This document shows, piece after piece, positions 21,725 to 62,931 of a stretch of DNA of 64,000 bases. The position numbers and the translations under genes are program-made. Source of the DNA: a virus; IMG/VR virus record IMGVR_UViG_3300046642_000296, positions 1 to 64,000 of that record; one strand, written 5' to 3'. The notes beneath the pieces are model-generated. The model saw only the letters and a program-made list of their open reading frames with translations. It ran no database searches and was not told the origin of the DNA. Positions within the stretch are counted from its first letter, which is position 1. Each line of letters begins with the position of its first letter.

Positions 21725-22501
21725 ATGAGCGCATTGTTTGGAAACCTCACCTCGAATGGCCTGGAAGAATCGCAGGACCGCCTGGGCGGCAACTTCGGCC
21801 CGGTCGAATCGGACATCTACAAGGCTGTGATCAAGGCCGCCTACGCCGGCCAGGCAGCGAGCGGCGCACGCTCGGTGTCGTTCATCTTCGACCTGAACGG
21901 CCGCGAGTTCCGCCCGACGATCTACATCACCAACAAGAAGGGCGAAAACTTCTTCATCAACAAGCAGGACGCAACGAAGAAGGTACCGCTGCCGGGCTTC
22001 ACGACCGTCGACGATATCTGCCTGGTCGCCACCGGCAAGCCGCTCGCCGAGCAGGATGCCGAGGACAAGGTGATCAAGCTGTACGACGCTGAAGCCGGCA
22101 AGGAACTGCCGAAGTCGGTCCCGATGCTCGTCGAGCTGCTGGAAAAGGAAGTGTCGCTCGCTATCCTGAAGCTGCTCGTGAACAAGAACGTGAAGAACGA
22201 CGCCACCGGCGACTACGAGCCGACGGCCGAAACGCGCGAGGAAAACAACATCGAGAAGGTGTTCGACACCGAGTCGCAGATGACCGTCAACGAAGCACGC
22301 CAGGGCGCCGAGAAGGCAGCGTTCTGGGACGGCTGGCTCGAGCGCAACAAGGGCAAGACGAAGGACAAGCGCACGCTGAAGGACGGCGAAACCGGTGCCG
22401 TGGGCGCGCCGCCGAAAGCCCGTGCAGCTGCCAACGGTGCACCGGCGCCAACCGCAGGTGCCGCTCCGAAGAAGTCGCTCTTCGGCAAGAAGGCTGCCTG
22501 A
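21725..22501 (+). CDS. ssb: Single-stranded DNA-binding protein / late transcription activator (N4 gp45-like)
   Basis: EESQDRLGG, the C-terminal KKSLFG tail typical of N4 SSB, and synteny. Confidence 0.88.
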   Translation: MSALFGNLTSNGLEESQDRLGGNFGPVESDIYKAVIKAAYAGQAASGARSVSFIFDLNGREFRPTIYITNKKGENFFINKQDATKKVPLPGFTTVDDICLVATGKPLAEQDAEDKVIKLYDAEAGKELPKSVPMLVELLEKEVSLAILKLLVNKNVKNDATGDYEPTAETREENNIEKVFDTESQMTVNEARQGAEKAAFWDGWLERNKGKTKDKRTLKDGETGAVGAPPKARAAANGAPAPTAGAAPKKSLFGKKAA

Positions 22502-22533
22502 GCCAGCGAAAGCAAACGGAAAGGTAACCGATC

Positions 22534-23112
22534 TTGCGCATCCCCGTCGCCGGCATGGATCCCTCAATGAGAAACTGGGGGACCGCTGAAGCCATTCTCG
22601 ACCTGGATACTGGCGTCCTGACGACCCCTGTGCTGTCCCTGTGCTCGCCGCAGGACATCAAGGGCAAGCAGGTACGCCAGAACTCCAACGATCTGCATCT
22701 CGCCCGTGTGCTTTACGAGCATGCCCTGTGCGTCGCACGACGCAGCAAGGTCATCTTCGTGGAGTGTCCGGTAGGCTCCCAGTCCGCTTCTGGCATGAAA
22801 GCCTACGGAATTTGCGTCGGTATACTGGGTGCACTAAGGGCCGAAGGCCATGAGATCGTCGAGGTCACCGCATTCGAGGTGAAGGAATCTTTCACCGGCC
22901 TGAAGAATGCGTCAAAAGCTCAGATGATCGCACAGGGTGTGGCGGATTATCCGGATGCTAACTGGCCACGTCAGGAACGCAATGGAGCCAGGCACAGGAA
23001 AGGTGACCTGAAGAACGAGGCTGAGCACGTCGCCGATGCGCTTGCCGCCATACACGCCGGGGTGAGAACCCCGATGTTCCTAAATCTGATGCGACTCTTC
23101 GCAACTCTGTAG
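22534..23112 (+). CDS. RuvC-like Holliday junction resolvase (N4 gp46-like)
   Basis: Acidic motifs GMDPSMRNWG, FVECPVGSQ and EHVADALAAI. Confidence 0.82.
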   Translation: MRIPVAGMDPSMRNWGTAEAILDLDTGVLTTPVLSLCSPQDIKGKQVRQNSNDLHLARVLYEHALCVARRSKVIFVECPVGSQSASGMKAYGICVGILGALRAEGHEIVEVTAFEVKESFTGLKNASKAQMIAQGVADYPDANWPRQERNGARHRKGDLKNEAEHVADALAAIHAGVRTPMFLNLMRLFATL

Positions 23113-23121
23113 AGACACAAC

Positions 23122-23646
23122 ATGCAAATCATTATCGTCCAGTCTGAAATCGAACACGCCATCCGCAACTACATCAACAGCCAGTTGAATGTGAAGGACG
23201 GCATGCGTATCGACATCGACCTGTCAGCCACCCGTGGTGCTGACGGTTTCAAGGCCACGATCGACATCGTGCCGAACGAAGCGCCGAGCGCACCGAAGGC
23301 CGCGCAGGCGCCCGAACCCACCCCGACGCCTGCTCCGGCATCGGCCAAGACCGAAACGAAGGCTGAAGCCGCGGTGACCGCCTCGCGTGCATCGGTGCAG
23401 GTGGATCCCCCGAAGTTCACGCCGGAAGCCGAAGTCCCGATTGCCGGCGAGCAGGCGGCAGCATCGACCGCTGGTGCAGCTGCGGAAGCTGGTGCTGCGC
23501 CGAGTGCTTCGGCTGAACCGTCGTTGACGGAAGCCATGCCCTACAAGCCGGCTGAAGGTTCGCAGGTCGCTGCCGAGAATGCAGCAGCCCCGGCTGCACC
23601 GGCACGCAGCCTGTTTGCTGGTCTGAAGAAGCCGGTGAACGCGTAA
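23122..23646 (+). CDS. Hypothetical protein (N4 gp47-like; Ala/Pro-rich tail ending SLFAGL)
   Basis: MQIIIVQSEIEHAIRNYI N-terminus; synteny. Confidence 0.75.
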   Translation: MQIIIVQSEIEHAIRNYINSQLNVKDGMRIDIDLSATRGADGFKATIDIVPNEAPSAPKAAQAPEPTPTPAPASAKTETKAEAAVTASRASVQVDPPKFTPEAEVPIAGEQAAASTAGAAAEAGAAPSASAEPSLTEAMPYKPAEGSQVAAENAAAPAAPARSLFAGLKKPVNA

Positions 23647-23647
23647 C

Positions 23648-23857
23648 ATGAAGGCTTCCGGGTTCCTCATCGTGGGGATCCTGATTGTGGCGGCGATCCT
23701 GGCTATCACAGCCATGCTCGTCGTCGCAGCGCCCTACATCGCCGTGGTCGTCGTCATCGCCTTCCTCGCTTTCCTGGCTTCAAAAATACCGGAGCCAGAA
23801 AAGAAGAAGGAGGCGCCGCCGAAGTGGCCACACGACCCGAACGACTTCAGGCAGTAA
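23648..23857 (+). CDS. Small membrane protein
   Basis: Two hydrophobic segments followed by a basic tail. Confidence 0.7.
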   Translation: MKASGFLIVGILIVAAILAITAMLVVAAPYIAVVVVIAFLAFLASKIPEPEKKKEAPPKWPHDPNDFRQ

Positions 23858-23866
23858 CGCAGTAAT

Positions 23867-23906
23867 GAAAAACCCCCAGACTAATCTCTGGGGGTTTTTC
23901 TTTTTC
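23867..23906. terminator. Bidirectional terminator between the convergent middle and late blocks
   Basis: GAAAAACCCCCAGA-CTAATC-TCTGGGGGTTTTTC-TTTTT. Confidence 0.85.
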
Positions 23907-23909
23907 TGG

Positions 23910-26900
23910 TTACCCGAAGATGTTCACCCAGGGGTTCATCATCGGTGCGTGGAACACCTGCCCGACACCAAAGCTGTGTGTCAGACCACCGTCCATGAGC
24001 TTCGTGAAGAAGTTGTCCCCGAGTGGCGTGCCAACCGAGCCGAACATATGCGGGATCGGTACCGATGCAGCCAGCAGTGAGTGCACCGGATTGTTACGCA
24101 CCATCGACATGGCCACCTTCGCCGCACGGATCTTGAAGTTGTAGAACCACAGAAGGCCCATCGACTCCAGGTAACCACGGAACCGGCCGGGCAGCTTGTC
24201 GTAGTTCACGAACTCTTCGGTCACCCGGCTGAGCGCATACGCCGACGACTTGTTCTGACGCTTGGTCAGATCATCGTAGAGCAGCGCCTTGGCGATGAAG
24301 TCCCCATACTCAACCGACTTCTGCAAGCCCTTGAAGAGTGCTGTGTCCTTCGTCACCAGTGCATAGCGGCCAGCGGTCTGCAAAGCCTTCGGCAACTTGT
24401 CGACCTGAGCTTCCAGATACGACTGAACCTTGCCTGAAGTCAGCGCAATGTCATCTGAACCCACACGCGACGCATCCGAGATACCAGTGAATTCCCCTGC
24501 CTGGATCAACGGATGGATTGAGAGCCGCTTGAAGCTGTCCTCAATCGACTGCCACTGTGCACTCAGTTTGCGCGTGGCCACCGGATCTTCAGTTGCTGTG
24601 CGCATCTGTGCTTCCAGCTGGATCTGCTGCTGACGACCCTTCACATAGAAGTTGGTCTCCGCGATCTTGCGCGGTGCGCCCATGGCGATGTGCTTGATGG
24701 GCACACCCCGACCGACGAGCTGGAGCATGTTGCCGAGCATGTTGGTCACCGGCACCACCACCGACTTCACGACGATCAGCGTCTTGGCGTCGCCAATGAA
24801 GTTCTGCAAGGTCTTCTCCGCATTGGTGAAATACTGGTAGGCCTTGTTGCCAAACATGCCGATCATCACCCGCTTCATGTATTCCTGGGTCTCGGGCGAC
24901 CAGCGGGAGTTGCCGGTAAACACATCACCCACCGACGCATTACGGTAGCCCATCGCATCGTGCAGCATGTCGCGCGACACATAGAAATGGTCCCCGAACA
25001 CTGCCTTGATCCGCTGGCGGGTTTCCGGCGTCATCAGCTTGACTGCATCGGCAATCACCGGATCCTTCGCCAGCTCACGCGGATCCGACAGGTTCACGTA
25101 TTCCTTCTGGTTCGAGGCCGACTCCCTGATGTCTGCCTCGTAGCGGGCGTGCAGGGCATCGATCAGCGCATTGTTGAATTCCTGCGCCTTGGCTTCCTCA
25201 ACCTGCCGGCCACGCCACACCCCGATCATCTGGGCCAGGTTCTGCTCAGACACCGCACGCTGCGCCTGCTGCGGATCGATCGAGCGCTCGAAGGCCACCG
25301 GCACGCCCTTCTCGTCGAAGACGGGCATCAGCGGTTCCATGCCCGACTCTCCGCGTGCGAGGTTCAGTGCCGTACGGGCCACTTCAGCACGATCCGTAAT
25401 CCGGCCGGCAATCATCGACGAGTTGTTGAACCCGCTGCCGATGTCCACGCCGTTGACCGACTGGCGCACGTTCTGGAAGATGCCCTGATTAAAGAGCGTA
25501 CGTGAGGAGACCGGCGCAAAGTAGTAGCCCATGCGGCCCTTCAGCCCGTCCGCGGAGCTGCCCTTGTAGTCGGCCACCCGTACGTAGGAACGCTCAGTGA
25601 GCGCCTGGTAGTTCGCATCGTCGGCCACCATCAGGTGCACACCGGTTTTCTGCTGCTCCGGGATGTAGCCCTTGAAACCGTTGATGCGACCCCGCGGCGA
25701 CTGCTCAGCCTTGCGCTGCTCTTCCGCACGCTGGCCAACCAGATAGTCCGTCGTGAACTTCAGGCCGGCACTTTCCTGCTGAACCAGGGAAGCGAGCATG
25801 CCCTTTTCCGTCGGGCTCAGTTGCTCCAGCGCGTAGAGCGAGGTGAGATGGTCGACCATGCGGATGAAGTCCGCATCCCGCTTGCCCGTCTTCTTCGCCG
25901 ACTTTTCGAGGAAGAGCCGGCTGATCGCTTCAGCATTACGCAGCAGGTTCGTGCCGACCTTGCCCGTCATCTGGAACTTCGCCAGCTGCTGCATCTTCTT
26001 CTGGTACAGGTTCCAGTTTGCCGGATCTGCCTGCTGGACCTTGCCCTCCAGATCGTTGATCGCCTTGTCGAGCGTCTTCGCATCACCGAGCATGCCCTGG
26101 ATGTCTTCATGACTGAAGTGGCTGCGCAGTGCGGCAATGTCCGTGCGACCGAGTGCACGATGCAGCATCGACCACTCGCTGTCCTCAAGCGGGCGGCTGA
26201 ACTGGTCAGCGATGATGCCCGGCACATGCTCACGATAGTTCTGGCGATCCTGCGAGATCTCCGCACGCACGGCCTTCGTCATGTCGTAGACCGGCGCATT
26301 CTCATCGGTGCGGCCCACGAAGTCATAGACGAGATCGTGCAGGGGCTGCCAGGCGTTGGCCCGGTTCATCAGCGCCACCACCGACTCCGCCACCTTGTTG
26401 CCGTTCTTCTCGGTGGCCATGCGTGCCGAGACCTGCGCATACTTGGCCAGGTTCTTCGAGAGCGGCGAGGCGGCCGGATCGTCGATCACCTGCTGCATGC
26501 TGTCGATGATCTTATCGGTCACCCGTTCGACGCCCTGCACGACCGTTGCATTAAGCGAGTCCACTGCATCACCGGCCCAGGTCTGGCGCATGAACGACTC
26601 ACGGTCGTGGGCGACATCCTGGACGTGACGCATCAGGCTATCGATCGAATCACGCACATTGCTGCTCTTCGTGTCACCGGCCATCAGGTCCGACAGGCGG
26701 CCCATCAGGCCCATGCCCAGGTTCTCCAGCATCGCATCGAGCCGGCTCTTGGCCGCGGACTTCTCGCCCTTGGGCAGATCCATCTTCTGGAGCACCGAGC
26801 GGAAGTCATCGTTGACCATGGCCAGACCCAGGAACACCGGCATCAGCGACGAGCGGCCTGCCTTGTCGGTAGACGTGCCGAAGTCACCCATCACCATGTT

Positions 26901-29900
26901 GTACTTCTGCTGGGCCTGGTAGCGGTCATTAGGGTCATCGAGCTGCGGATCGGTCTTCATGAAGTGCTCGACCATCAGGTTCTTCGTGACGTGCTGGTAG
27001 AGCTCCTGTGCGCGGGCCATCGACGAAGGATCGATATGCGCCTGCGTGCCGAGGGCTGCCGCAATCAGCGAGAAGGTGCTCGCTTCCTGCATACTCATCG
27101 GAAAGCCATGGGCCTGCACCTGCAGTGCGAGTCCGGCAGCCTGAACCTTGGCAAAGTTCGCCTGTGCCTGGCCTGTGCTCGCCACATCGGCCGGCATCGG
27201 CTGACGGGAGAACGAATCGAGCAGGCCGGCGAAGGACTTGTTCAGCTCAACGAGCCGGGGATTGGTGCCATAGTTGCTGTTCTGGTACAGCACCGTGCTG
27301 CGCAGTGCCTGGGCAACCGACGGCTGCGTGCGCATCAGCACGGCCGAGTTGAACAGCAGGTTGCTGAACATGTCCGCACCCGGCGTAACCGGTACCTGCT
27401 TGCGGCCATACACCAGCTGCCGGATCGCCTTGAACACGTCCTTGGCCATCTGAACCAGGGAAGAGACAACCGTCTTCTTCCCGAGCTCCGCCAGATCCTT
27501 GCTGGCCAGCGCCCAGGCCATGAACTCGTTCAGTGCCGAAGCCTTACCTTCCGCCGAGCTGTCCATCACCGAGTGGATCGCCGCCACCGCATCAGCGTGA
27601 GCCTGCTGCGCGGCCTCCGACTCCTTCGACACATCGAGCTCGAGGAACTGGCCCATCATCGTTTCGATGCGGCCGATCGTATCCTTGACCACTGCAGCAT
27701 TCGCGCCCAGGTCACTGCCCTGGTAGAACGCATGCACGGTCTCAAACGTCGAGGCGTGGATGAGCTCGTGCGTGAGCGTTTCCGCAGACGGATTGATCAG
27801 GTAGATCCGCTGCGACTGCGGCAGCGTCAGACCCTTCACACCAGGGCCGAACGCTGCGGCCGTGTCACTCTGGTTGAAAGCGAACTTCGCCAGCTGCTCG
27901 GGCGTGCCCGAGATCACCTTGTATCCCTTGGCTCCCAGCGAACGCGGGATCTCTTTCAGAATAGCGGCCTGGTGTTCCGGGATGCCTGCCTGAGTGCGGA
28001 TCTTGTTGACGGCCGTAGTCGAGAGGACACGTACACCAGTGGATTTGTCCACGCGTCCGAGGGAATTGACCTGTTTGGCGATGTCAGCCGACTCGGCCGC
28101 CTGGGTATTAGCCGCAGCCGCTTCCGGCTGTTCAACAGGAACGCCCTGCTGTACCGGTTCCTCAGTTTTCGCTTTTGCACGCAGTTTCTCCAGTTCCTCG
28201 GCGTACAGGTTGGCGAGCTGCGCCGCCTTCTCCTCATCGGTGCCGCTGATCTGGATCTTGCCATCGACGACGTGCGGGGCGCCGGCTGCTGCCATCTGGT
28301 CGACCGACAGGTTCACCCGGTCCATCACATTATGGCGCGCTTCGATCTGCAGGGCTGATTCCTGCAGTGCCTTCGACGTGGCTTCCATCTTCGAGACGAT
28401 GTCTGCAACGTCCACATCCTTGGCCGAGCTGCCCAGACCAAAGAGCGACTTGGCCAGCTGGTCGTGCAGCTCGGGATTGCTGGCGATGAACTTCGCCAGA
28501 TCGAGCTTGCTGGAAACCGACTTCATGAAGCCGCCCCAGGCCTCGGACACTGCCTGCATCGGGTTGCCCCGCCAGGAGTCGAGCACTGCTTCATTGGCTG
28601 CCTGGCTCTGCTCGGTGATCGAATCGAGCGGCATGTTCATACCATCAAAGATCTTCAGCGTGCGGCGCACCCGCGGATCGTTGGCCAGGTTCTGCATCAT
28701 CTTGCCGTCGCCCATGCCGATGTTCAGGAACGGGATACCGGCGACACCAGCGTTGGCCGGACCATAGACGAAGGCTGTCGCCCGGAACGAGCCATCCAGA
28801 GCCCGACCGAAGTCAGTCGTATCGACACCACTGTTTTGCGAACCGGCAACGAAGAAGGACTGATCCTTCGTCTGAACCAGGGGATGGAACACAGCCAGGG
28901 ATTCCATCACCTTGTTCAGCTCATTGCTCGACAGGAACTCATCCCGGCCAAAGTCAGGGTTCGCCTTTTCCTTGGCCTGCAGTGCCGACTCCACACCCTG
29001 GAGGAACAGGTGCTGCATGAAGATCGACTGGGTTTGCGTGGCCTGGCGGATCAGGTTCGTACTCTTCTCCAGATCACCCACTACATCCTTGATGGCACCA
29101 CGCAGCGGATCGACGAACAGCGTGCGCATGTTCGCGGACATGTTCTTCAGTTCCTGCGGTGTGAAGGTGAACTTCGTGAAGCCCTTGCTGACCGTGCTGT
29201 TCTCACCTGCCGGCGTGTCGATCAGGTAGTGCTGACCCTTCTTCGAGCTGTAGACCGCCGTGCTGTCGATCAGGGCATTGATACGCTGGTTGAACTTCGC
29301 CCACTTTTCCTCGGCGAGCGGATCATCCGGAAAGAAGGCTTCAGCCGGCGTGACCGACTGGTCAGCCTCTTCAGCATCAGCCATGCGCTGCGCGGCCGCA
29401 CTCATGCGCTCGTAGATCGCATCGACCATGCCACCCACCATCTTGGCGGCAATGCCGTTGGCACCCGAGCCGTAGATCGTGATCGTCAGCGGGTTCTTGG
29501 CGATGCCCCGGCCGATTTCGAGCTTGCCATCCTTGATGTCCAGATCAGGCAGGAACATGTCCATCAGGTTCATCAGGTGGCGTTGCTGCTGCAGCACCTT
29601 GTCATTGCCCTGGCTCTTCAGGGACTGGTTCAGGTCGGCGAGGTGGCTGCGCAGCCGGTCGGTCGTGGCCTGATACAGGTCAGCCGCACCGTCAGGCGTC
29701 GAGCGGATTGCCGATGAGGTATTGGCTGCCGTGCCGCCGATCTCCAGCCCACCACGGCGCATGTTCGATACCCAGTCAGCCGTGAATGGCCCGGTCGAGA
29801 GCAGCGCCATGGCATTGACCGGACCATTGGTCATGCCATCGGCCTCGAGGTACTTGGTCGTGGTGAACTTCGCACGCTCCTCCGCCGACGCATTCTGGAA

Positions 29901-32900
29901 GCGGGCGTACTCGGTCAGTGCATGCAGAGCCAGAGGAGAGATATCCTGGCCGGCTGCCGTGAACGCATCCTCCACCGTCTTCGTGGCCAGCGGTGCCTCA
30001 TCCTTCAGCCACTTCTGGAAGTGCTCGACTGCCGGCGCAAAGACGCCATTGAGCAGGCCATCGAGCTTGCTGTGGATGTCGGCGTAGGCGAGGTTGTGCA
30101 CCTTGATGCCAAGCGCCTGGGCCAGACCCAGTTCGAATGCCTGCATGTGCTTCGCATCGGTCAGATCGAGCGTGGCACGCGTGGGCAGCATCACTTCGCG
30201 GATGAGCTTCGTCGACTGCGGGTTGTACTTGCCGAGCATCTGCATGCGGCCCACCCGGCTCATGTTGTAGCCGTAGTGGTTGGGCACATCTTCGGGCGCA
30301 ACACCCTGCTCCTGCGCCGTAGCCTCAATGGCTGCGTGCAGGTTCTGGAACTCCCGGTAAGCGGCCCGGATGGTCATGTTCTGACCGGCGAGTGATGCCT
30401 TGTGGTTGTCGTTGAGCGCTCGGCCTTCCAGATCCCCTGCCCCGAACCAGCGAAGCGCAACAGCCTCGGTCATGTCGTGATAGAGGCTGGCCATCGTCGG
30501 ATTCAGAAAGTGCGGCGTGTCCTGCTCGTTCTTCAGTGCCGAGAGCTGGTCGCCCGTGTTCTTCACGTACTCATTGCGCATCTGGCGACGGGCCACGTCC
30601 GGACGCTGGTCATCGAAATAGTAGGTCGGCGTCGACTTCGTGAGCACCGACTTTTCAATGAGGTCCGGGAACTTGCGGATCGCGTCTTCCTTGTCGAGCT
30701 TCACCGGCAGGATCCGGTTGATCGACTTGACGTGCTCACTCTCCACCGTGTCTTTCGTGGGATCGATCAGACCGCCGTTCTCGGACGTGTCCACCCAGAT
30801 CTTGTCCGTGTCGATGAGACCGTGCTCCTGCAGCGCACGCAGCACTTCGGCCGCCATCGACAGCGGGATACCTTCGGTGTAGCCGATCGGTGCGTCACGG
30901 TTTGCACGCACACCCCAGTACTGCTGGATCTTCGCAGCGAGTGAGTCGAGTGCTTCGGTCGTGCCGATGCTGCCCTTCAGGCGGGTAACGAGCGTGTCAT
31001 CGACAGCACCCACCGGAACGCCGGTGAGCTCCGACGCATGCTGCGCATCGAACACATTGCCAAGCTGACCGGAGCCAAGAAACCAGGTCATGCCGGCGAG
31101 CGCTGCACCCTGCAGCAGCTGCTCGTTATACTGCAGCCGGCCGTCGACGTTTTCCGTCAGGTTCAGCAGCTTGCCATCGACCCAGCGGTGAGCATGAGCG
31201 GCCTTGCCTTCCTCATTGAGGAAGCGCTCGCCCACACGCTTGTCCGTGAGGAACTTGTCCAGGTTGTCACGCAGCGTGCCGAGGATCCGGTCAATGTCAC
31301 GGAAGGCCGTGGCATAACCCTTCCATACATCCTTGCTGAACTCTTCCGGCATTGCTCGGATCGCCTGCTTCACCGAGTCGGCAATGGCCTGCACCGGCTC
31401 TTCATGAAGCACGACATTGCTCGGCGGCGTGTTCTCGTCAGCACCCCTGGCCGGTCGGAAAGCCTGGGTGAACTGGTTGCCACCGGCTTTCGGTTCGATC
31501 AGTTGCGGATAGGCCGCGGCCAGTCCCTGCTTCTGTTCAGCAACAGGCGCAGCCCCAACCTTCTCTGCAGGCTTTGCTTCGGGTTTGACTACCGGCGCAG
31601 CATCTGCCTTCACTGGCTCAGTTGTCTTGACCTCTGCCTTAACTTCAACCGGAGCCTGTTCAACCGGCTTGCTGGTAGGTGCCGGTGCAGCTTCCCTGGT
31701 GGCGACCTTCGGCTCAGCAGGCGTAACAGTCTGTTGCGGCGCCTGGCTCTTTGCCTGGACCGGCGTAGACTTTGCTGAACGGGTACCATCCTTGAATTCA
31801 CGGACGACATCATCCAGTGAACCATCAGCCAGCCGGGAATCCAGAGGAGTCTGTGTCAGATGCTCAACATTCAGTTCGGGAAAAGCCGTACTCAGATGGT
31901 TGTGGAGGTCCGTCAGGAACTTCGCCTCACTGGCTACTCGCCGGGCCAGAGCAACACTGGTCTTGCTCGTCGGATTGACGAACACACCTTCCTTCGACTT
32001 GCCGAAGCTGCGGTCCGCGTTGGCGGAGAGCGTCTCGTAATGGACCGTGCTTCGTACACCATCCTTGGCCGTAGCCAGATGCCCGTTGATCGCCGCGAGC
32101 TTGTTCTGCTGGCTCTGGGCAAACTTCTGGAGGTCAAGCAGCTGGCTGCGGGCACCATCGAGATCACCCGAACGGTACGCCGAGCGAATCGTCTGCGCAT
32201 GGCCCAGCGCCGACTTCTGGAACGGGTTCGCCGCATCTTCCACAGCCACATTCTTCGCCACCAGATCCTGCGGGCTTAGCGGCTTGTCACCGTTGGCCGT
32301 CAGTTCATCGAAGTGCGTCTGGGCCGTCTTGAGCAATGCGGCCGCCGCCAGCAGGGCACGACGCTGCGGATCATTGAGCCCGATCGACGTAGCGTGTTTG
32401 AGCGCGATCTGCACCGACGGCAGATCCAGCTTCTGCGGCGCCACTTCAGCGAGGTTCGCAATCGTCTTCGCATCCGCCAGACCTTCCGGCGTCTGGACGC
32501 GTTGTTCGGTCAGCGGTTTGATGATGTCGGCTGCCCGGTCCACCAGGGTCTTCGCCGCACGGTCAGCGCGAGCCATCCCCGGAGTCGATTCCACACCCTT
32601 GGCGAATGTCGCCACGTCATCAGCGAATGCACGGGCTTCATGCCCCTGTGGGAGGTCATCAAGGGCATGCGGATTGGCATCGGCAAAGCGGCCAATGTCA
32701 GCCTTCTCCTGCTCGAGCTGCGCCGCCACTGCAAGGCGATCGGCTTCCGGATGCTCCGTATCCTGCAGGTAGGCCTGCATGTTCTGGATCGCCGTGAAGC
32801 GGTTGGTCGCATCGCCGACGGCCTGCTGGGCAGCCGGATGCCACTGCGCCACCTGCTCCGGTGAGAGCTCGGTGATCTTCGACGCCTGATCGAGGTAATC

Positions 32901-34778
32901 GTTGGCGCGAGCCTTCGCTTCCGGCGACAGGTCCGGCGTGTCGTTGACCGACTGCCTGAGTGCTTCCGCCTGGCTCGGTGCCGTGGCCTGCATGTCCTGT
33001 GCAGCCTGGGCAACCGTTTCATCGGCCACCGGCGAATCCTGCTCGTTCTGCTTCATGACTGCATCGCCACGATTGGCGAAATAGTCGGTCACCTTCGAGA
33101 CATAGGGCTTCGCCGTCTGAACCAGGGAACCCAATGCCGAGCCTGCTGCGCCAGCGAGACCCGTACCGGTTTCAGCGACAGCTGAGCCCGCATCCTTCAG
33201 GGTCGAGAGACCCGCACGGATCTGGTCGATGGCCGGGCTATTACGCGCAGCATCCACACCGGCACCGATGCCTTTGGCGGCGAGCGTAGCAGCACCGAGC
33301 GGCGCACGGATGGCTGCACCCAGCGCCACACCAGGAGCTGCCACATGGCCGGCAGCCGCCGCACCATAGAGCGCACCCTGGCCGAACTGCTGACCTACGG
33401 AGTCGAGCAGATCCTGGGCCGGATTCGATCCCTGGCTCTCAGCGTAGTTCTGCGCTACCTGGCCTGTGGCGTTCTGCGTACCCTCTTCGAGCGCTTCCTT
33501 GCCCACGTTCTGCAAGGCCGTGCGCACACCACCGAGCTTGAACGGATGGGCTTCGAACGGTGCCACCAGTGCGCCAGTGAGCACGCCGGCCGGTGCCTGC
33601 CACTTCGCAGCCGTTGCGCCTTCATTGCCGGCGAGCGTGGCCCGTGCATCTTCCGGTGTCATGCCGCCCGCCACCAGCTTATTGAAAGCTGGCGACTGCT
33701 GGGCGAGCGTAGCCGGGTCCGTGTTCATCACATCAGCGGCGGTCTGCTGGTAAGCACCCGCCCCTTCCATCGCACCGATGGCCAGCGAACCAGGGACGTA
33801 CTTCTCACCTGCCTGCACCGCGGCGTCGAGCAGCCGGGATGCGGAGTTCGTGCCGGTCGCACGGGCAATATCGGCTGACATGCCAAGACCGAGCCGGGCA
33901 GTTTCCGGCAGGATCGCCTTGCCGGTCGCACCGATCACCTTGGCGACCGGTCCCGTTGCAAGCAGCGATCCGACAGCATTCGAGGCGCCTTCTCCAAACG
34001 CTGTCGGATCTGCCACTTGATGGCCCACCGAGTCAAGGACATTACGGCCTTCACGGCGCAATGTAGCCACCACGTCATGGCTGGGAGACTTGTAGCCCAG
34101 CGCAGCATCGAGCGCATTCAGTGAAGTTTCAACACTGCCCGGACTGGCAGCCTTCTCTTTCTCGAACTGGGCCTGGTTGTCCCGGCTCGTGAGCGAGTCG
34201 AGTGCGGCCACCTGGCTGGCACTGTCCTGGGCAGTCTGCGACTTGTAGCCTTGTTGCGTGTTTTGCCAGTCACCCAGGCTCTGCGCAATCGAGGCGCCGA
34301 GCTTCGGATCGATCACATGCGCGCCCAGTGCACCGAAGGAACCAAGGGTGGAAGCGAGACCGGTACCCAGCGAGTTGGCAGAGTCACCCAGGATCTGGCC
34401 CAGATCACGCGAGCGGGCATCCTGATTGCCGACATCACGCGTGGCCGAGACATAGCGGTCCAGCATTTTCTGGCCTTCATCACCGTACTTGGCGACGAAC
34501 GACACGGGGTCCATCGTGCGCAGGTCATGTTCAACCGGACTGGCTGATGCCAGACCCGCATTGCTTTGACGGCTGGCGGCCACAGCCAGCGGGTAATACG
34601 ACTGCTGCGTGAGACCGGAGACTTTCTCGACGATCGAGGCCTGCTTGTCAGGCGTGAGGAAGGAGAGTTGCTGCTGGATCCGGGCGGAAGTCGCATCGAG
34701 CGACTGCGGAGCGTTGACCGGTGCCGGTGGTGCAGCTGCATTCGCAGCAGCGTCCAGCAGGGAATTCAGGTCTGCCAT
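23910..34778 (-). CDS. Virion-encapsidated RNA polymerase (N4 gp50 vRNAP), 3622 aa
   Basis: T7-like motifs RVGRMQM, EADGMTNG (A), RGIAKNPLTITIYGSG (B) and KIFDGMN (C). Its size and apparent lack of Cys match N4 vRNAP. Confidence 0.97.
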   Translation of the reverse strand: MADLNSLLDAAANAAAPPAPVNAPQSLDATSARIQQQLSFLTPDKQASIVEKVSGLTQQSYYPLAVAASRQSNAGLASASPVEHDLRTMDPVSFVAKYGDEGQKMLDRYVSATRDVGNQDARSRDLGQILGDSANSLGTGLASTLGSFGALGAHVIDPKLGASIAQSLGDWQNTQQGYKSQTAQDSASQVAALDSLTSRDNQAQFEKEKAASPGSVETSLNALDAALGYKSPSHDVVATLRREGRNVLDSVGHQVADPTAFGEGASNAVGSLLATGPVAKVIGATGKAILPETARLGLGMSADIARATGTNSASRLLDAAVQAGEKYVPGSLAIGAMEGAGAYQQTAADVMNTDPATLAQQSPAFNKLVAGGMTPEDARATLAGNEGATAAKWQAPAGVLTGALVAPFEAHPFKLGGVRTALQNVGKEALEEGTQNATGQVAQNYAESQGSNPAQDLLDSVGQQFGQGALYGAAAAGHVAAPGVALGAAIRAPLGAATLAAKGIGAGVDAARNSPAIDQIRAGLSTLKDAGSAVAETGTGLAGAAGSALGSLVQTAKPYVSKVTDYFANRGDAVMKQNEQDSPVADETVAQAAQDMQATAPSQAEALRQSVNDTPDLSPEAKARANDYLDQASKITELSPEQVAQWHPAAQQAVGDATNRFTAIQNMQAYLQDTEHPEADRLAVAAQLEQEKADIGRFADANPHALDDLPQGHEARAFADDVATFAKGVESTPGMARADRAAKTLVDRAADIIKPLTEQRVQTPEGLADAKTIANLAEVAPQKLDLPSVQIALKHATSIGLNDPQRRALLAAAALLKTAQTHFDELTANGDKPLSPQDLVAKNVAVEDAANPFQKSALGHAQTIRSAYRSGDLDGARSQLLDLQKFAQSQQNKLAAINGHLATAKDGVRSTVHYETLSANADRSFGKSKEGVFVNPTSKTSVALARRVASEAKFLTDLHNHLSTAFPELNVEHLTQTPLDSRLADGSLDDVVREFKDGTRSAKSTPVQAKSQAPQQTVTPAEPKVATREAAPAPTSKPVEQAPVEVKAEVKTTEPVKADAAPVVKPEAKPAEKVGAAPVAEQKQGLAAAYPQLIEPKAGGNQFTQAFRPARGADENTPPSNVVLHEEPVQAIADSVKQAIRAMPEEFSKDVWKGYATAFRDIDRILGTLRDNLDKFLTDKRVGERFLNEEGKAAHAHRWVDGKLLNLTENVDGRLQYNEQLLQGAALAGMTWFLGSGQLGNVFDAQHASELTGVPVGAVDDTLVTRLKGSIGTTEALDSLAAKIQQYWGVRANRDAPIGYTEGIPLSMAAEVLRALQEHGLIDTDKIWVDTSENGGLIDPTKDTVESEHVKSINRILPVKLDKEDAIRKFPDLIEKSVLTKSTPTYYFDDQRPDVARRQMRNEYVKNTGDQLSALKNEQDTPHFLNPTMASLYHDMTEAVALRWFGAGDLEGRALNDNHKASLAGQNMTIRAAYREFQNLHAAIEATAQEQGVAPEDVPNHYGYNMSRVGRMQMLGKYNPQSTKLIREVMLPTRATLDLTDAKHMQAFELGLAQALGIKVHNLAYADIHSKLDGLLNGVFAPAVEHFQKWLKDEAPLATKTVEDAFTAAGQDISPLALHALTEYARFQNASAEERAKFTTTKYLEADGMTNGPVNAMALLSTGPFTADWVSNMRRGGLEIGGTAANTSSAIRSTPDGAADLYQATTDRLRSHLADLNQSLKSQGNDKVLQQQRHLMNLMDMFLPDLDIKDGKLEIGRGIAKNPLTITIYGSGANGIAAKMVGGMVDAIYERMSAAAQRMADAEEADQSVTPAEAFFPDDPLAEEKWAKFNQRINALIDSTAVYSSKKGQHYLIDTPAGENSTVSKGFTKFTFTPQELKNMSANMRTLFVDPLRGAIKDVVGDLEKSTNLIRQATQTQSIFMQHLFLQGVESALQAKEKANPDFGRDEFLSSNELNKVMESLAVFHPLVQTKDQSFFVAGSQNSGVDTTDFGRALDGSFRATAFVYGPANAGVAGIPFLNIGMGDGKMMQNLANDPRVRRTLKIFDGMNMPLDSITEQSQAANEAVLDSWRGNPMQAVSEAWGGFMKSVSSKLDLAKFIASNPELHDQLAKSLFGLGSSAKDVDVADIVSKMEATSKALQESALQIEARHNVMDRVNLSVDQMAAAGAPHVVDGKIQISGTDEEKAAQLANLYAEELEKLRAKAKTEEPVQQGVPVEQPEAAAANTQAAESADIAKQVNSLGRVDKSTGVRVLSTTAVNKIRTQAGIPEHQAAILKEIPRSLGAKGYKVISGTPEQLAKFAFNQSDTAAAFGPGVKGLTLPQSQRIYLINPSAETLTHELIHASTFETVHAFYQGSDLGANAAVVKDTIGRIETMMGQFLELDVSKESEAAQQAHADAVAAIHSVMDSSAEGKASALNEFMAWALASKDLAELGKKTVVSSLVQMAKDVFKAIRQLVYGRKQVPVTPGADMFSNLLFNSAVLMRTQPSVAQALRSTVLYQNSNYGTNPRLVELNKSFAGLLDSFSRQPMPADVASTGQAQANFAKVQAAGLALQVQAHGFPMSMQEASTFSLIAAALGTQAHIDPSSMARAQELYQHVTKNLMVEHFMKTDPQLDDPNDRYQAQQKYNMVMGDFGTSTDKAGRSSLMPVFLGLAMVNDDFRSVLQKMDLPKGEKSAAKSRLDAMLENLGMGLMGRLSDLMAGDTKSSNVRDSIDSLMRHVQDVAHDRESFMRQTWAGDAVDSLNATVVQGVERVTDKIIDSMQQVIDDPAASPLSKNLAKYAQVSARMATEKNGNKVAESVVALMNRANAWQPLHDLVYDFVGRTDENAPVYDMTKAVRAEISQDRQNYREHVPGIIADQFSRPLEDSEWSMLHRALGRTDIAALRSHFSHEDIQGMLGDAKTLDKAINDLEGKVQQADPANWNLYQKKMQQLAKFQMTGKVGTNLLRNAEAISRLFLEKSAKKTGKRDADFIRMVDHLTSLYALEQLSPTEKGMLASLVQQESAGLKFTTDYLVGQRAEEQRKAEQSPRGRINGFKGYIPEQQKTGVHLMVADDANYQALTERSYVRVADYKGSSADGLKGRMGYYFAPVSSRTLFNQGIFQNVRQSVNGVDIGSGFNNSSMIAGRITDRAEVARTALNLARGESGMEPLMPVFDEKGVPVAFERSIDPQQAQRAVSEQNLAQMIGVWRGRQVEEAKAQEFNNALIDALHARYEADIRESASNQKEYVNLSDPRELAKDPVIADAVKLMTPETRQRIKAVFGDHFYVSRDMLHDAMGYRNASVGDVFTGNSRWSPETQEYMKRVMIGMFGNKAYQYFTNAEKTLQNFIGDAKTLIVVKSVVVPVTNMLGNMLQLVGRGVPIKHIAMGAPRKIAETNFYVKGRQQQIQLEAQMRTATEDPVATRKLSAQWQSIEDSFKRLSIHPLIQAGEFTGISDASRVGSDDIALTSGKVQSYLEAQVDKLPKALQTAGRYALVTKDTALFKGLQKSVEYGDFIAKALLYDDLTKRQNKSSAYALSRVTEEFVNYDKLPGRFRGYLESMGLLWFYNFKIRAAKVAMSMVRNNPVHSLLAASVPIPHMFGSVGTPLGDNFFTKLMDGGLTHSFGVGQVFHAPMMNPWVNIFG

Positions 34779-56511: not shown

Positions 56512-58101
56512 TCACACGATATATGCCGCAAGCCCGCTTGGTTCGCTGTGCTGTTCGTCTTCCTCGTAGATCGACACCTCGTGAGGCGTGACCGGCATCG
56601 AATCCGACGGACGGAACGGCTTCAGATAGCCAAGCATCGACACGGTGTCGATGAAGTCGTCTTTGCCTTTGATGCCGCTGGAAGTGACCAGCTTGAGCTG
56701 GCCCATTGCGATACCGAGCGTCTTCGACAGCTTCATCTCTTCCGGGAAGTAGAACTTGCCGGCCTTGAACCAAGGAACAACCAGATTGAAGCGGGAGAGC
56801 TTGTCGGTGATTGGGCGTATGCCAGGGGTTCCACTCTTCTCCGAGGAAGCGAAGTTGAACCAGATGTTGCGGTTCATCATCTCTGCCTGGAGCCAGGAAA
56901 TGAAAGCGCCCTGCTGTCCCGTGATCTCGATGCCTACCTGCTGCGGTTTGTACAGCTGTACCAGCCTGAACAGGTCGTCGACTGTCTTGTCCATCTTCTG
57001 GCGTTCGATGATCCCATCGACCCAGAGCCAGTCGCCGTTGGAATTGTACGCCCAGACACTGATGACTGAATAGTCGGCTGTCTGTTTTTCTGAGGTGGCG
57101 AAGTCGGTCGTGATGTAGAAGTTGAAACTGTTCCTGTTCTCCAGCAGATTGCGCCGGTTGTACCAGCGGATCTCCGCGTCCTGAACGAGGCGTTCCTCTT
57201 CCGAACTGATGCGCAGCATCAGTTCCTGCATGAAGGCCGCGAGCTTGCCGGTTTTCACCGCCATCTCGTATTGGTCCCTCACGTACTCGTAGGTGAAGCG
57301 ATCCTCCCATGCGCCGCAGAATTCTTCCTTCTCACAGGGAAAACGCTCGCACACCGGCCACACGTTCACGTCCCAGGCGCCCGACTCGACCGCTTCAATC
57401 AGGATGTCGTCCTTGTTGAACGGTGTGCCGTTGAAGATCACCTTGCGACGTGTCGGATCCAGGGCGTGGTTCACGCCCTTGTACACCGTGTCCTTGATCG
57501 CCTCCATGGCGGCCTTGGACTTCGAGTCATCATCCGAGATCAGGTCATCGAGCACGGCAACGACCGGCCGCTTGCCGAAGATCTTCGTGCCGCGCAGACC
57601 CGTCTTCGCACCGAACATCTTGATGCCGATGCGGTGCCCTTCCCGGTTCTGGAACTCGATGTAGTTGTCCGTGAAGGTGGCGTGCGGAATCCACTCCTTC
57701 AGGAACTCACTGTTGTTGTACCGGAACTCAATGTTCTTTCGGGCAGACTTAACGCCGTTGTCCATCGAGTCAGACACATAGATCATCCCCTCAACCTTAC
57801 CGAAGCCTGGGATATATCCAAACATGCCGAGGAACAGTGAGAAATACTCCATGAACAGAGTAGTTTTCGCTGCACCCCGGAAACAGAGGTTCGCAATATA
57901 GTCAGACTTCGATTCAACCACCTTGTCGAGCATCTTCAGATGCACTGGTGGGGTTTTGTGAGATTCGCCCTGTTCGCCGTTCGCCAACTTGATGAAGTTC
58001 ATGAACGTCAGGGCAAACACACTCGGGGCATAACTGGGCGAGTTCAGCTCCTTATAACTGACCTGATCAAGCCAGTTATCGAGCTCCTGTTTAATGAGCA
58101 T
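56512..58101 (-). CDS. terL: Terminase large subunit (N4 gp68-like)
   Basis: CFRGAAKTT, VLDDLISD, FNGTPF, ITTDFATS and DDFIDTVSML. Confidence 0.95.
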   Translation of the reverse strand: MLIKQELDNWLDQVSYKELNSPSYAPSVFALTFMNFIKLANGEQGESHKTPPVHLKMLDKVVESKSDYIANLCFRGAAKTTLFMEYFSLFLGMFGYIPGFGKVEGMIYVSDSMDNGVKSARKNIEFRYNNSEFLKEWIPHATFTDNYIEFQNREGHRIGIKMFGAKTGLRGTKIFGKRPVVAVLDDLISDDDSKSKAAMEAIKDTVYKGVNHALDPTRRKVIFNGTPFNKDDILIEAVESGAWDVNVWPVCERFPCEKEEFCGAWEDRFTYEYVRDQYEMAVKTGKLAAFMQELMLRISSEEERLVQDAEIRWYNRRNLLENRNSFNFYITTDFATSEKQTADYSVISVWAYNSNGDWLWVDGIIERQKMDKTVDDLFRLVQLYKPQQVGIEITGQQGAFISWLQAEMMNRNIWFNFASSEKSGTPGIRPITDKLSRFNLVVPWFKAGKFYFPEEMKLSKTLGIAMGQLKLVTSSGIKGKDDFIDTVSMLGYLKPFRPSDSMPVTPHEVSIYEEDEQHSEPSGLAAYIV

Positions 58102-58781
58102 CAGATCTCTTTTGCCTCCACATCAATGATTCGTTGGCCAGCAATCTCCCTGGCTGTAACGCCACCCGCGATGAGTTGCTGCTGCTGTTCGGCGAGCTTG
58201 CGCATCATCTCCTTCATCTCCGTCATGCCACTGGATTCCTTGACATCGATGTTGATGAGCGGGCCGGCTTCCTTCGGCTTGGTCAGGTGGGTAAGCAGGG
58301 AGTTGGCTGCATCCGATCGCACCTTTGGCGACACATCTGGATCGCTCATCAGCACAACCTGGACGTTGATTGCCCGCTGGTAGATGTCCTGGTTAAGCAC
58401 CCAGCTCGGCACCAGCGACTGCTCCAGAATCAGGTTGACCAGCTTGCCCTTGGCATAGGCCGACACGTACGCGCTGATGTCCTTCTCGCTGGTTCCCTTG
58501 GCCATGAGCGTCTGGTAGCGACCGGGGAACGTCTTGAAGTAGGCGTCCTTGTTCGAGTCGCCCATCAGCTTGTAGGAGACGAAGGCCACGGCATGCACGT
58601 AGTCCTCGGTCTTGAACTTGCCGTCCTTGAGCACGCCGGTGTAGCTGATGAAGTTGTTGCGCACCTGCTCGGCGATGAGCGGATCGGCGGCGATGTTATT
58701 CACCAGATCCACCAGCTGCGGCGTGATGGCGTTCTTCAGGTTGGCGGGTACCGCCCGCTCAACGATTTCCTTGGTCAGCAT
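58101..58781 (-). CDS. N4 gp69-like protein (putative terminase small subunit)
   Basis: FISYTGVLKDGKFK and VRSDAANSLLTHL; ATG at 58781. Confidence 0.8.
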   Translation of the reverse strand: MLTKEIVERAVPANLKNAITPQLVDLVNNIAADPLIAEQVRNNFISYTGVLKDGKFKTEDYVHAVAFVSYKLMGDSNKDAYFKTFPGRYQTLMAKGTSEKDISAYVSAYAKGKLVNLILEQSLVPSWVLNQDIYQRAINVQVVLMSDPDVSPKVRSDAANSLLTHLTKPKEAGPLINIDVKESSGMTEMKEMMRKLAEQQQQLIAGGVTAREIAGQRIIDVEAKEI

Positions 58782-58885
58782 CAGTGAATGCCTCCCTTGC
58801 CCAGGTAGTCGATCGACCAGACAAGCCATCCGGCAAACGCCACGAGACAGGCAAGCAGGCCCACCCCAAATACAGTCCAGAACAT
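58781..58885 (-). CDS. Small membrane peptide (34 aa)
   Basis: Read directly: MFWTVFGVGLLACLVAFAGWLVWSIDYLGKGGIH; TGATG coupling to gp69. Confidence 0.6.
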   Translation of the reverse strand: MFWTVFGVGLLACLVAFAGWLVWSIDYLGKGGIH

Positions 58886-58950: not shown

Positions 58951-59730
58951 TTACTCGGCGGCTGGCCCGCCAATACGGCAGCGAAGGATGTACAGGTAGT
59001 CCTCCATCGCACTCGCCTGCTTCACGAGCAGCCGGCGCTCGCGATCCGGCAGTGCTTCGAACGTCGGCGTCTTGCGGAAGATCTGCAGCTTCTCGAACTT
59101 CTCGCCAAGCTCCTGCTCCTCGAGCTTCAGCCGGTCCAGATAGGTGGTCTGACGGGGTTCAACACCGACCGTGTAGGCGTTCTCGAATACACCCTTGGGC
59201 GACCAGGAGATGTAGCCGGCAAAGCCTTCAACGTTCGGAGCACCGCCGTCCGTATACTCGACGAGGTAACCCTGTGTTTCCGGATCCTCATTGACCGGGA
59301 TCTCCCAGCCGCGCACTGCGTTGTAGGCACCCAGGTTCATCGGCACGGCCCGCACAACCTTTGTGCCGACATACGTCAGCGGCCGGGAGCCAAGGAGGGA
59401 AACAATCGCGCCAGTCGCCGGGCCTGCCTTGTCGATCAGTGCCAGCTTGCGGGCCAGCTCGAAACCGAGCAGCGGCCAGATCTGACCGACCGCGTCCTTC
59501 TTCGCAAACTCGCGGCCGATCTCCGGCTTGAAGTTTTCCTTGCTCACGCAGCTCGCCTTGCCCACAGCACTGAAGCGGCCATTGGCCATCGACAGCTGGG
59601 CAATCGTCGTGGTGCCGTCGGGCAGCAGCGTGTAGCTCTCCCCTTCGATCGTGGCCATCACCTGCTCAAGCGTCACCCGCGGGGCGACGGCAGCAGCGGC
59701 CAGTTGTGCTTCAGTAATCGGTGCGTTCAT
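58951..59730 (-). CDS. Three-domain fusion: Gp49/Sf6-gp66 domain + YxGTK...SWSPK domain + crAss001_48-like helical domain (putative multi-sponge anti-defence protein)
   Basis: PRVT...GKASCVSKENFKPEIG...IWPLLGF; YVGTKVVRAVPM...GYLVEY...GYISWSPKGVFENAY; RLKLEEQELGEKFEKL...LLVKQASAMEDYLYILRCRI. Confidence 0.78.
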   Translation of the reverse strand: MNAPITEAQLAAAAVAPRVTLEQVMATIEGESYTLLPDGTTTIAQLSMANGRFSAVGKASCVSKENFKPEIGREFAKKDAVGQIWPLLGFELARKLALIDKAGPATGAIVSLLGSRPLTYVGTKVVRAVPMNLGAYNAVRGWEIPVNEDPETQGYLVEYTDGGAPNVEGFAGYISWSPKGVFENAYTVGVEPRQTTYLDRLKLEEQELGEKFEKLQIFRKTPTFEALPDRERRLLVKQASAMEDYLYILRCRIGGPAAE

Positions 59731-59802
59731 GGTTGTCCTTCATCTGTTGGATAGTCCACATATAGACTCAATATAGTTTAGGGTCCATTTAGAGATCCGT
59801 CT

Positions 59803-59820
59803 ATAGATATATGTTTGGGG
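59803..59820 (+). promoter_or_regulatory. Conserved 18-bp motif copy
   Basis: ATAGATATATGTTTGGGG. Confidence 0.6.
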
Positions 59821-62391: not shown

Positions 62392-62931
62392 GTGATCCAG
62401 AAACCACTCAAATATGCAGGCATTGGTCCTCGCCGGACTCCACTGGATGTCTGCGAACAGATAGTCAGTGTGAGCCGCCAGCTTTGTGAACAGGGATGGG
62501 TTGTGCGCTCTGGCCATGCCCAGGGAGCCGACCAGGCATGGGCCGTTGGCCACACTCCGGACAAGCGCGAGATCTACCTGCCATGGGCACGGTTCAACCT
62601 GCCTGGTGGCTTGCCGCAAGGATTCGCTGTCAGTCCAGTAACACCACAGCTTGAAGCTGTTGCACGCATCGCCCATCCAGCCTGGGACAGGCTAAACCAG
62701 GGCGGTCAGAAGCTCATGATGCGCAACGTCTCGATCATCCTCGGCCACGAGCTCGATGATCCCGTGCAGTTTGTCGCCTACTGGTCCGAGCAGCGCAAGG
62801 TCCAGGGCGGCACAGGCAACGCCGTCAATCTCGCATCACTCAATGGCATCCCGAGTTTCAACATCGCGTTCGAAGACGACCAGCTGGCCATGTCGGACTT
62901 CGTCGACTCGTTGCCACAGGGAGCTGCCTAG
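62392..62931 (+). CDS. SLOG/DprA-like Rossmann-fold protein
   Basis: YAGIGPRRTP, RSGHAQGADQAW, IYLPW, LMMRN and GGTGNAV. Confidence 0.78.
   Translation: MIQKPLKYAGIGPRRTPLDVCEQIVSVSRQLCEQGWVVRSGHAQGADQAWAVGHTPDKREIYLPWARFNLPGGLPQGFAVSPVTPQLEAVARIAHPAWDRLNQGGQKLMMRNVSIILGHELDDPVQFVAYWSEQRKVQGGTGNAVNLASLNGIPSFNIAFEDDQLAMSDFVDSLPQGAA

Follow-up and report, generated by a model that had tools for sequence, protein, structure and literature searches.

We analyzed the first 64,000 nucleotides of IMG/VR virus record IMGVR_UViG_3300046642_000296, a stretch that we will call the window. The record represents a complete virus genome of 77,219 bp that carries terminal repeats in direct orientation. The subject of this report is an intact open reading frame (ORF) of 259 amino acids (aa) that begins with ATG and occupies positions 58951 to 59730 on the minus strand. 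An earlier reading of this DNA, made from the letters alone and referred to below as the sequence-only reading, had divided the ORF into three small modules and proposed that one polypeptide may sequester several immune second messengers. The three modules and their borders are where that reading had placed them, as judged by Pfam and by profile search. Pfam identifies the two outer modules as an Acb4 domain and a Sequestin domain, each scoring above its gathering cut-off, and between them lie a linker and a module of about 70 residues that has no name in the databases (Table 1). We argue below that the product is probably a bifunctional immune-signal sponge.

The two flanking sponge domains

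Residues 1-100 had been recognised as a Gp49/Sf6-gp66-type domain, and Pfam places PF13876 (Phage_gp49_66) at residues 19-95 with E=7.8e-18 and 65.2 bits, against a cut-off of 27; in profile searches of the phage's own genome the domain scores 68 bits. The statement that this family includes Acb4 was accurate, for the Acb4 paper equates PF13876 with the Acb4 family and counts 1,331 homologues (bioRxiv 10.1101/2024.12.30.630793). The full-length ORF was modelled with AlphaFold2 (AF2) at a mean pLDDT (predicted local distance difference test) score of 92.9 and a predicted template modelling (TM) score of 0.75. A Foldseek comparison of the Acb4 part of the model with the family's founding member, SPO1 Acb4 (PDB 9E4W), gave E=2.2e-4, a probability of 1.00, a root-mean-square deviation of 1.0-1.7 Å over 65-71 columns and a TM score (target) of 0.63-0.75. 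The two proteins have this fold and an ENF..EIGR core in common; they differ in that identity is only about 23%, several ligand-contact residues are changed and the ORF has additional domains. Acb4 proteins are tetramers with four pockets for cyclic GMP-AMP (cGAMP), and 3'3'-cGAMP was bound by all eight of the homologues assayed (bioRxiv 10.1101/2024.12.30.630793). In an alignment the domain is also collinear with residues 1-83 of gp59 from the Pseudomonas phage vB_PaeP_C2-10_Ab09 (hereafter Ab09) and with gp48 of Escherichia phage N4.

At the other end of the protein, residues 195-255 had been described as a crAss001_48-like helical hairpin. The corresponding Pfam family, PF21825 (crAss001_48), matches residues 196-253 with E=1.1e-16 and 61 bits against a cut-off of 24.8, and the domain scores 64.1 bits in the own-genome search. 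In the AF2 model it forms a two-helix hairpin (helices 197-219 and 229-254) with pLDDT values of 95-98. Tal et al. have shown that PF21825 is a type I Thoeris sponge, which they named Sequestin, and that no other family is fused as often to Acb4 (91 cases) or Tad2 (60 cases) (bioRxiv 10.1101/2025.07.12.664507). Because crAss001_48 is thus itself a published sponge family, an anti-signalling reading of the ORF is strengthened. The pocket residues are conserved: R200, E204, Q238 and R252 are invariant among 55 three-domain homologues of the ORF, their spacing (+4, +38, +14) equals that of R8, E12, Q47 and R61 in SequestinA, and they can be aligned with Ab09 gp59 as well. In SequestinA, mutation of E12, Q47 or R61 abolished activity (bioRxiv 10.1101/2025.07.12.664507). 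The hairpin and the R-x3-E ... Q-x13-R residues are therefore common to the ORF and to members of the family such as SequestinA, SequestinB and T4 Y16O. These family members are stand-alone proteins of 60-80 aa, whereas in the ORF the Sequestin is the C-terminal domain of a three-module protein.

Homologues that cover 91-98% of the ORF form more than 80 clusters of 240-300 aa. Many of them come from contigs of 73-79 kb, and named clusters come from Paraburkholderia and Caballeronia assemblies. In the 55 three-domain homologues only 1 of the 17 linker columns is conserved. Profile searches of the phage's own genome found one copy each of Acb4, Sequestin and the middle module.

The unnamed middle module

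The middle of the ORF behaves as a separate unit, since two PHROGs families, phrog_9467 and phrog_872, match residues 119-187 alone. A profile built from stand-alone copies of this module retrieves it from the window with E=2.3e-39, and the ORF shows the motif that the sequence-only reading had pointed out, Y.GTK...A.PM ... GYLVEY ... SWSPK.VFE.AY. Its consensus, about 70 aa in length, is Y.GTK...A.PM.R..YN..RGW..P..E....GYLVEY.DGG.PN....GYISWSP..VF..Y. Pfam gave no match to residues 100-195 of the ORF, nor to 25 members of the module family that were scanned singly. The module is acidic, with an isoelectric point (pI) of 4.4 and a total of 4 lysines and arginines. Of its roughly 70 positions, 29 are at least 90% conserved in 150 diverse representatives, and many of these belong to a pair of exposed loops in which R, W, D, N and Y abound. 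In its AF2 model (pLDDT 84) the module is a small β-barrel that also has a pair of short helices and two loops, both long and conserved.

Comparisons with proteins of solved structure gave little. A sequence-profile search of the PDB returned no hits at E<=1, which leaves distant kinship possible; Lockin (9P8L), TadIV-1 and the solved Tad2 chains were among the candidates that did not appear. With the model as query, Foldseek found nothing in the PDB at E<=0.001, the top match being SPO1 Tad2 at a non-significant E=0.17 and TM 0.30. A wide VIA-align search gave its best Z of 5.0 with DUF1653 (3be3), followed by CarD, Mfd-RID, Tudor and SH3-like folds at Z 3.5-4.3, all below the level needed to claim a common fold, and no nucleotide-binding protein was matched in the fold searches. 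The ESM Atlas returned only unnamed viral clusters, with scores of 0.84-0.86. The possibility that the module is a diverged copy of Acb4, Sequestin or Tad2 was rejected, with hhalign probabilities of 0.3% or less for each; for Tad2 (PF11195), where the value is 0.3%, Pfam likewise gave no match at E<=1. The solved Tad2 chains align only with the C-terminal half of N4 gp49, and the chains of ModTad2 (8V3E/9EIB), 88-89 aa long, do not include the module. TadIV-1 (T4 vs.3) is helical and confined to Straboviridae and was likewise rejected. Finally, a homodimer prediction with two copies of residues 113-190 and a 148-row alignment scored 0.38 against a mark of 0.42, and we use this result neither for nor against dimerisation.

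A relative of known structure in RyR Tad

When BFVD was searched with the model of the module, a match to an RyR-domain protein of a Yersinia phage was obtained (E=1.7e-5), and this match led to gp68 of the Pectobacterium phage vB_PatP_CB1 (hereafter CB1), known as RyR Tad. The module and the N-domain of CB1 gp68 align by BLASTP with E=3e-8 and 35% identity over 65 aa, and comparison of their profiles with hhalign gives a probability of 97.1% (E=7e-11). These sequence comparisons place the N-domain of RyR Tad within the module family, as a diverged member. The published work on CB1 gp68 is the only experimental information on this family, and it suggests a role in dimerisation. Crystallised gp68 forms a symmetric dimer with a swapped N-domain, in which strand β1 enters the other protomer and completes a five-stranded sheet, and ligand is confined to the C-domain (2026 preprint). 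The N-domain by itself (gp68_N, residues 1-86) had no activity against type I Thoeris, for which the RyR domain alone was sufficient (2026 preprint). Like the ORF, CB1 gp68 joins the module to a sponge domain for glycocyclic ADP-ribose (gcADPR) and is found in an N4-like phage. It differs in that the partner is an RyR-repeat domain and the module is N-terminal.

It was also of interest to compare the ORF with known fusions of its two outer domains. Ab09 gp59, and with it a fusion from phage YH6, has the same two sponge domains in the same order, with collinear halves, in an N4-like phage, and the ligands are expected to be alike (bioRxiv 10.64898/2026.06.04.730250, 10.1101/2025.07.12.664507). 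The Ab09 protein is tetrameric, its Acb4 part being tetrameric and its Sequestin part dimeric, and its ligands are 1''-3' gcADPR, which is bound tightly, 3'3'-cGAMP, for which binding is weaker, and 2'3'-cAA (10.64898/2026.06.04.730250). In gp59 (147 aa) the Acb4 domain (1-83) is directly joined to the Sequestin domain (84-147), whereas the ORF has about 95 more residues, the linker and the module, between the two. An alignment that included Ab09 gp59, N4 gp48 and gp49, and the homologue from phage Arace01 confirms that the ORF corresponds to gp59 with a clean insertion of about 95 residues. In N4 the insertion can be aligned to the N-terminal half of gp49, the C-terminal half of which is Tad2. 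Thus N4 possesses counterparts of the Acb4 domain (gp48) and of the module (the N-terminal half of gp49), but as two separate genes and with the module on Tad2 instead of Sequestin. The window phage, in turn, keeps Tad2 as a separate gene of 96 aa without the module. The ORF is a module-bearing form of the published Acb4-Sequestin fusion.

Extent and fusion partners of the module family

In searches with a profile of the module alone, a threshold of E<=1e-3 gave 2,541 representative clusters and one of E<=1e-10 gave 1,310. The matches are always full-length and the module is mostly N-terminal. Fusion partners were counted in the top 149 representatives of the family. Sequestin was present in 43 of these, Tad2 (PF11195) in 42, Acb4 in 13 and the Acb2/Tad1 hairpin in 5; fusion to RyR Tad occurs as well. 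The sequence-only reading had named the middle domain as a frequent partner of DUF2829, and the Tad2 count bears this out. When architectures were assigned with our own domain hidden Markov models, 38 proteins were module-Tad2, 22+8 module-Sequestin, 5 Acb4-module-Sequestin and 8 module alone, and many others consisted of the module and a C-terminal part without explanation. An independent scan of viral contigs yielded at least 551 positive contigs, from 35 to over 250 kb. Among 80 viral loci, 75 have the module on one polypeptide with a known sponge domain. Twelve loci have a second sponge gene within 1.5 kb.

Several unusual members were noted in the course of this survey. A metagenomic protein of 402 aa (P0302) carries the module, Tad2, a PaaA2-like stretch, Acb4 and Sequestin on one polypeptide, so that three sponge families are combined with the module within a single protein. 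Eight other module-bearing proteins (P0056, P0069, P0103, P0146, P0154, P0169, P0171 and P0183) have in common a C-terminal region of about 130 aa, in which matches to the Acb2/Tad1 hairpin are weak or below threshold; this region may be a diverged Tad1/Acb2-like domain or a new family of partners. Some 50 other partners are singletons that belong to no Pfam family. Fusions to non-sponge domains are rare, with one protein each for WDGH (PF25311, E=1.9e-43), AP2 and HNH_3.

Genome context

The genome is N4-like. It encodes a virion RNA polymerase of 3622 aa (23910-34778, minus strand). The genes that come after it on this strand are structural and terminase genes. The ORF had been described as standing at the head of the late operon, and as a statement of position this is right, since it is the first gene of the leftward block. 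The order in this block is the sponge ORF, an ORF of 34 aa, an N4 gp69-like gene, the gene for the large terminase subunit, structural genes and the virion RNA polymerase gene. A divergent block on the plus strand starts at 59811, upstream of the sponge ORF. From its place the gene would be expected to be expressed late. A scan for σ70 promoters and terminators around the gene found no terminator and one weak promoter-like site on the plus strand, a result that is uninformative for late transcription of the N4 type. The TGA codon of the 34-aa ORF overlaps the ATG of the N4 gp69-like gene by one base, and this overlap suggests that the two are translationally coupled. Among isolated phages the closest relatives are Pseudomonas phage Arace01 (46% identity), Rhizobium phage RHph_X3_15 and Stenotrophomonas phage Philippe, with the gene at the equivalent place. 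In contrast to the ORF at the head of the terminase and structural block, Ab09 gp59 is located in a hotspot that adjoins the virion RNA polymerase gene.

A second sponge gene in the window encodes a stand-alone Tad2 (Table 1), which brings to three the number of known sponge families in this phage. It lies directly 3' of a primase gene (PriCT_1 match), and the position after the primase is an anti-signalling hotspot of N4-like phages (10.64898/2026.06.04.730250). CB1 gp68 occupies the equivalent position. CB1 also possesses an Acb4-like gene, gp89 (L084:45649-46041), annotated as similar to N4 gp48, with the portal/MazG region on one side of it and the terminase block on the other, and far removed from the RyR Tad gene gp68 (L084:17143-17694). 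From this separation it follows that sponge genes occupy several sites in N4-like genomes.

Table 1. Coordinates of the sponge gene, its parts and other genes of the window
Feature	Position	Strand	Basis
Whole ORF, 259 aa: Acb4, linker, unnamed module, Sequestin	58951..59730	-	ORF list
Shine-Dalgarno-like GAAGGA, 5 nt 5' of the sponge-gene ATG	59736..59741	-	Sequence reading
Acb4 domain (PF13876), aa 19-95, α-β-β-β-α fold	59446..59676	-	Pfam and Foldseek
Linker, aa 101-117, basic and variable	59380..59430	-	Homologue alignment, composition
Unnamed β-barrel module of ~70 aa, aa 118-187	59170..59379	-	Profile match, AF2 model
Sequestin domain (PF21825), aa 196-253, helical hairpin	58972..59145	-	Pfam
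Hydrophobic ORF, 34 aa, single transmembrane-like segment, flanked by the sponge gene and the N4 gp69-like gene	58781..58885	-	Sequence
N4 gp69-like gene, phrog_2109; "small terminase subunit" in phage Arace01	58101..58781	-	PHROG, E=1.5e-96
Terminase large subunit	56512..58101	-	phrog_38, E=2.7e-96
Stand-alone Tad2 sponge gene, 96 aa	20546..20836	+	PF11195, E=6.4e-25, 84 bits, above cut-off

Two other regions of the window deserve mention. Four ORFs of 258, 192, 174 and 131 aa without Pfam matches lie at 21725-24080 on the plus strand, between an AAA_24/Sak4-like gene and the virion RNA polymerase gene; in relatives this region is a hotspot that holds Bes1/Bes2-type and other anti-signalling genes. 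At 62392-62931 on the plus strand an ORF of 179 aa has a weak DprA-like (DNA_processg_A) match and resembles genes of the Arace01 early region that are annotated as "DNA processing chain A".

The role of the module

As a whole, these results lead us to propose, with a probability of roughly 0.6, that the ORF encodes a bifunctional immune-signal sponge of an N4-like phage, in which the module most likely holds sponge protomers together, as a clamp or scaffold that dimerises. The Acb4 domain is expected to be tetrameric and would sequester cyclic dinucleotides, of the 3'3'-cGAMP and cyclic di-AMP type, that are produced in CBASS, the anti-phage signalling based on cyclic oligonucleotides. The Sequestin hairpin is expected to form antiparallel dimers and would sequester 1''-3' gcADPR, the type I Thoeris signal. 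A particle of four chains would fit, in which Acb4 forms one tetramer and the module and Sequestin form two dimers each. We rank a scaffold first among the roles considered for the module, a ligand or catalytic activity of its own second and binding to a protein third. The scaffold is best supported because the N-domain of RyR Tad is reported to be a β1-swapped dimer that holds no ligand and, alone, has no activity against type I Thoeris. In our model of the module the invariant residues G122, T123 and K124 sit in the turn between β1 and β2, which is where the hinge of such a swap might be located. Furthermore, the partner families of the module are dimers, tetramers and hexamers, all with two-fold axes (bioRxiv 10.1101/2025.07.12.664507). 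The multi-signal sponge of the sequence-only reading thus stands in so far as the Acb4 and Sequestin domains belong to proven sponge families; its further suggestion, that the middle domain binds an uncharacterised signal, is not supported as it stands, and what is seen in the diverged relative speaks against it.

A number of observations weigh against the scaffold, or against the expected ligands. Stand-alone module genes of 66-94 aa exist, and these are hard to explain by a pure handle. In the 55 three-domain proteins the module has a mean pairwise identity of 65%, compared with 46% for Acb4 and 37% for Sequestin, and 30 of its 70 columns are at least 90% conserved, compared with 12 of 77 and 9 of 58, respectively. 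In our alignment the CB1 module lacks the near-invariant RGW and DGG.PN loops, which show at least 90% conservation in 150 diverse representatives, and it was assayed against a single defence system, type I Thoeris (2026 preprint). For these reasons its lack of activity may not transfer to canonical modules, and the selection on them may call for more than dimerisation. With respect to the Acb4 domain, the residues of SPO1 Acb4 that contact the ligand are K36, F48, E49, V56, Y57, F62, N63, I66, T70 and K81 (bioRxiv 10.1101/2024.12.30.630793). Only 3 of the 9 aligned positions are identical in the ORF (F53, F67 and I71), and the changes include E49 to S54, Y57 to V62 and K81 to P86. Because most of these aligned residues differ, the ligand specificity of the domain may not be that of SPO1 Acb4; members of the family from Gram-negative phages do vary in specificity (bioRxiv 10.1101/2024.12.30.630793).

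The stand-alone copies, and a conservation that exceeds that of the flanking sponge domains and extends to exposed loops, also speak for a module that handles a third signal, either as a homo-oligomeric sponge or as a small Acb5-like enzyme, which would make the ORF a triple antagonist. Candidate signals would be His-ADPR, N7-cADPR, cyclic trinucleotides, cCMP/cUMP or another molecule. Such a role is further suggested by guilt by fusion, the logic that lay behind the discovery of Sequestin, given the range of sponge partners counted above and the frequency of sponge fusions at viral loci. A family of this kind would have been invisible to the published fusion screen, which was based on Pfam, where the module has no entry. 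However, most sponge pockets are positively charged and the module is acidic, fold searches matched it to no nucleotide-binding protein, and in its crystallised relative the ligand was only in the other domain, the N-domain alone being inactive against type I Thoeris. We therefore consider a third signal-handling unit rather unlikely, although worth keeping in mind. A broader version, to which we give similarly tentative credence, is that the module constitutes a new family of signal antagonists, a small strand-swapped dimer able either to bind or cleave an immune signal or to block a sponge-sensing guard, so that the ORF would have three activities. Phages would then, just as tentatively, have bolted this module onto every known sponge family and so widened their coverage.

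The module may alternatively bind a protein. This might be a sensor or effector of a defence system, as with Tad3-Tad8, a conserved protein of the host, or a guard that detects sponges (such as Panoptes/PanDA), and the module would then ride on sponges as a second and mechanistically different countermeasure. Its resemblance to SH3, Tudor and CarD-like β-barrels, a class typical of protein contacts, is in keeping with this, as are its acidic surface and a very high conservation that would suit a conserved macromolecular target. Guards that sense Acb4 and other sponges do exist, and these would exert selective pressure for a companion function. But the fold matches are too weak for shared function to be deduced from them, there is no known partner, and the gene neighbourhoods point to no particular target, so that we regard this role as improbable. 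Lastly, the position of the ORF as first gene of the terminase and structural block might by itself suggest an accessory of packaging or virion assembly and not an anti-defence gene. This seems to us most improbable, since two strongly scoring domains come from families known only for signal sequestration, the Sequestin pocket residues are invariant, and the genomes of N4, Ab09 and CB1 carry homologues in quite different places.

Implications

The principle of sponge fusion and both of the flanking families have been published, and in this respect the gene mostly confirms known biology: by such fusions, several signalling defences are blocked by one small gene. What it draws attention to is the module, whose family numbers at least 2,541 sequence clusters, has no name in the databases and is found almost only on or beside sponges of five unrelated families. 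If the module is only a dimerising clamp, it would explain how multivalent sponge particles are built and would provide a portable oligomerisation handle. It could also serve as bait for further sponge families among its unexplained fusion partners. Should the module instead have its own ligand or target, it would represent a new and very widespread counter-defence family.

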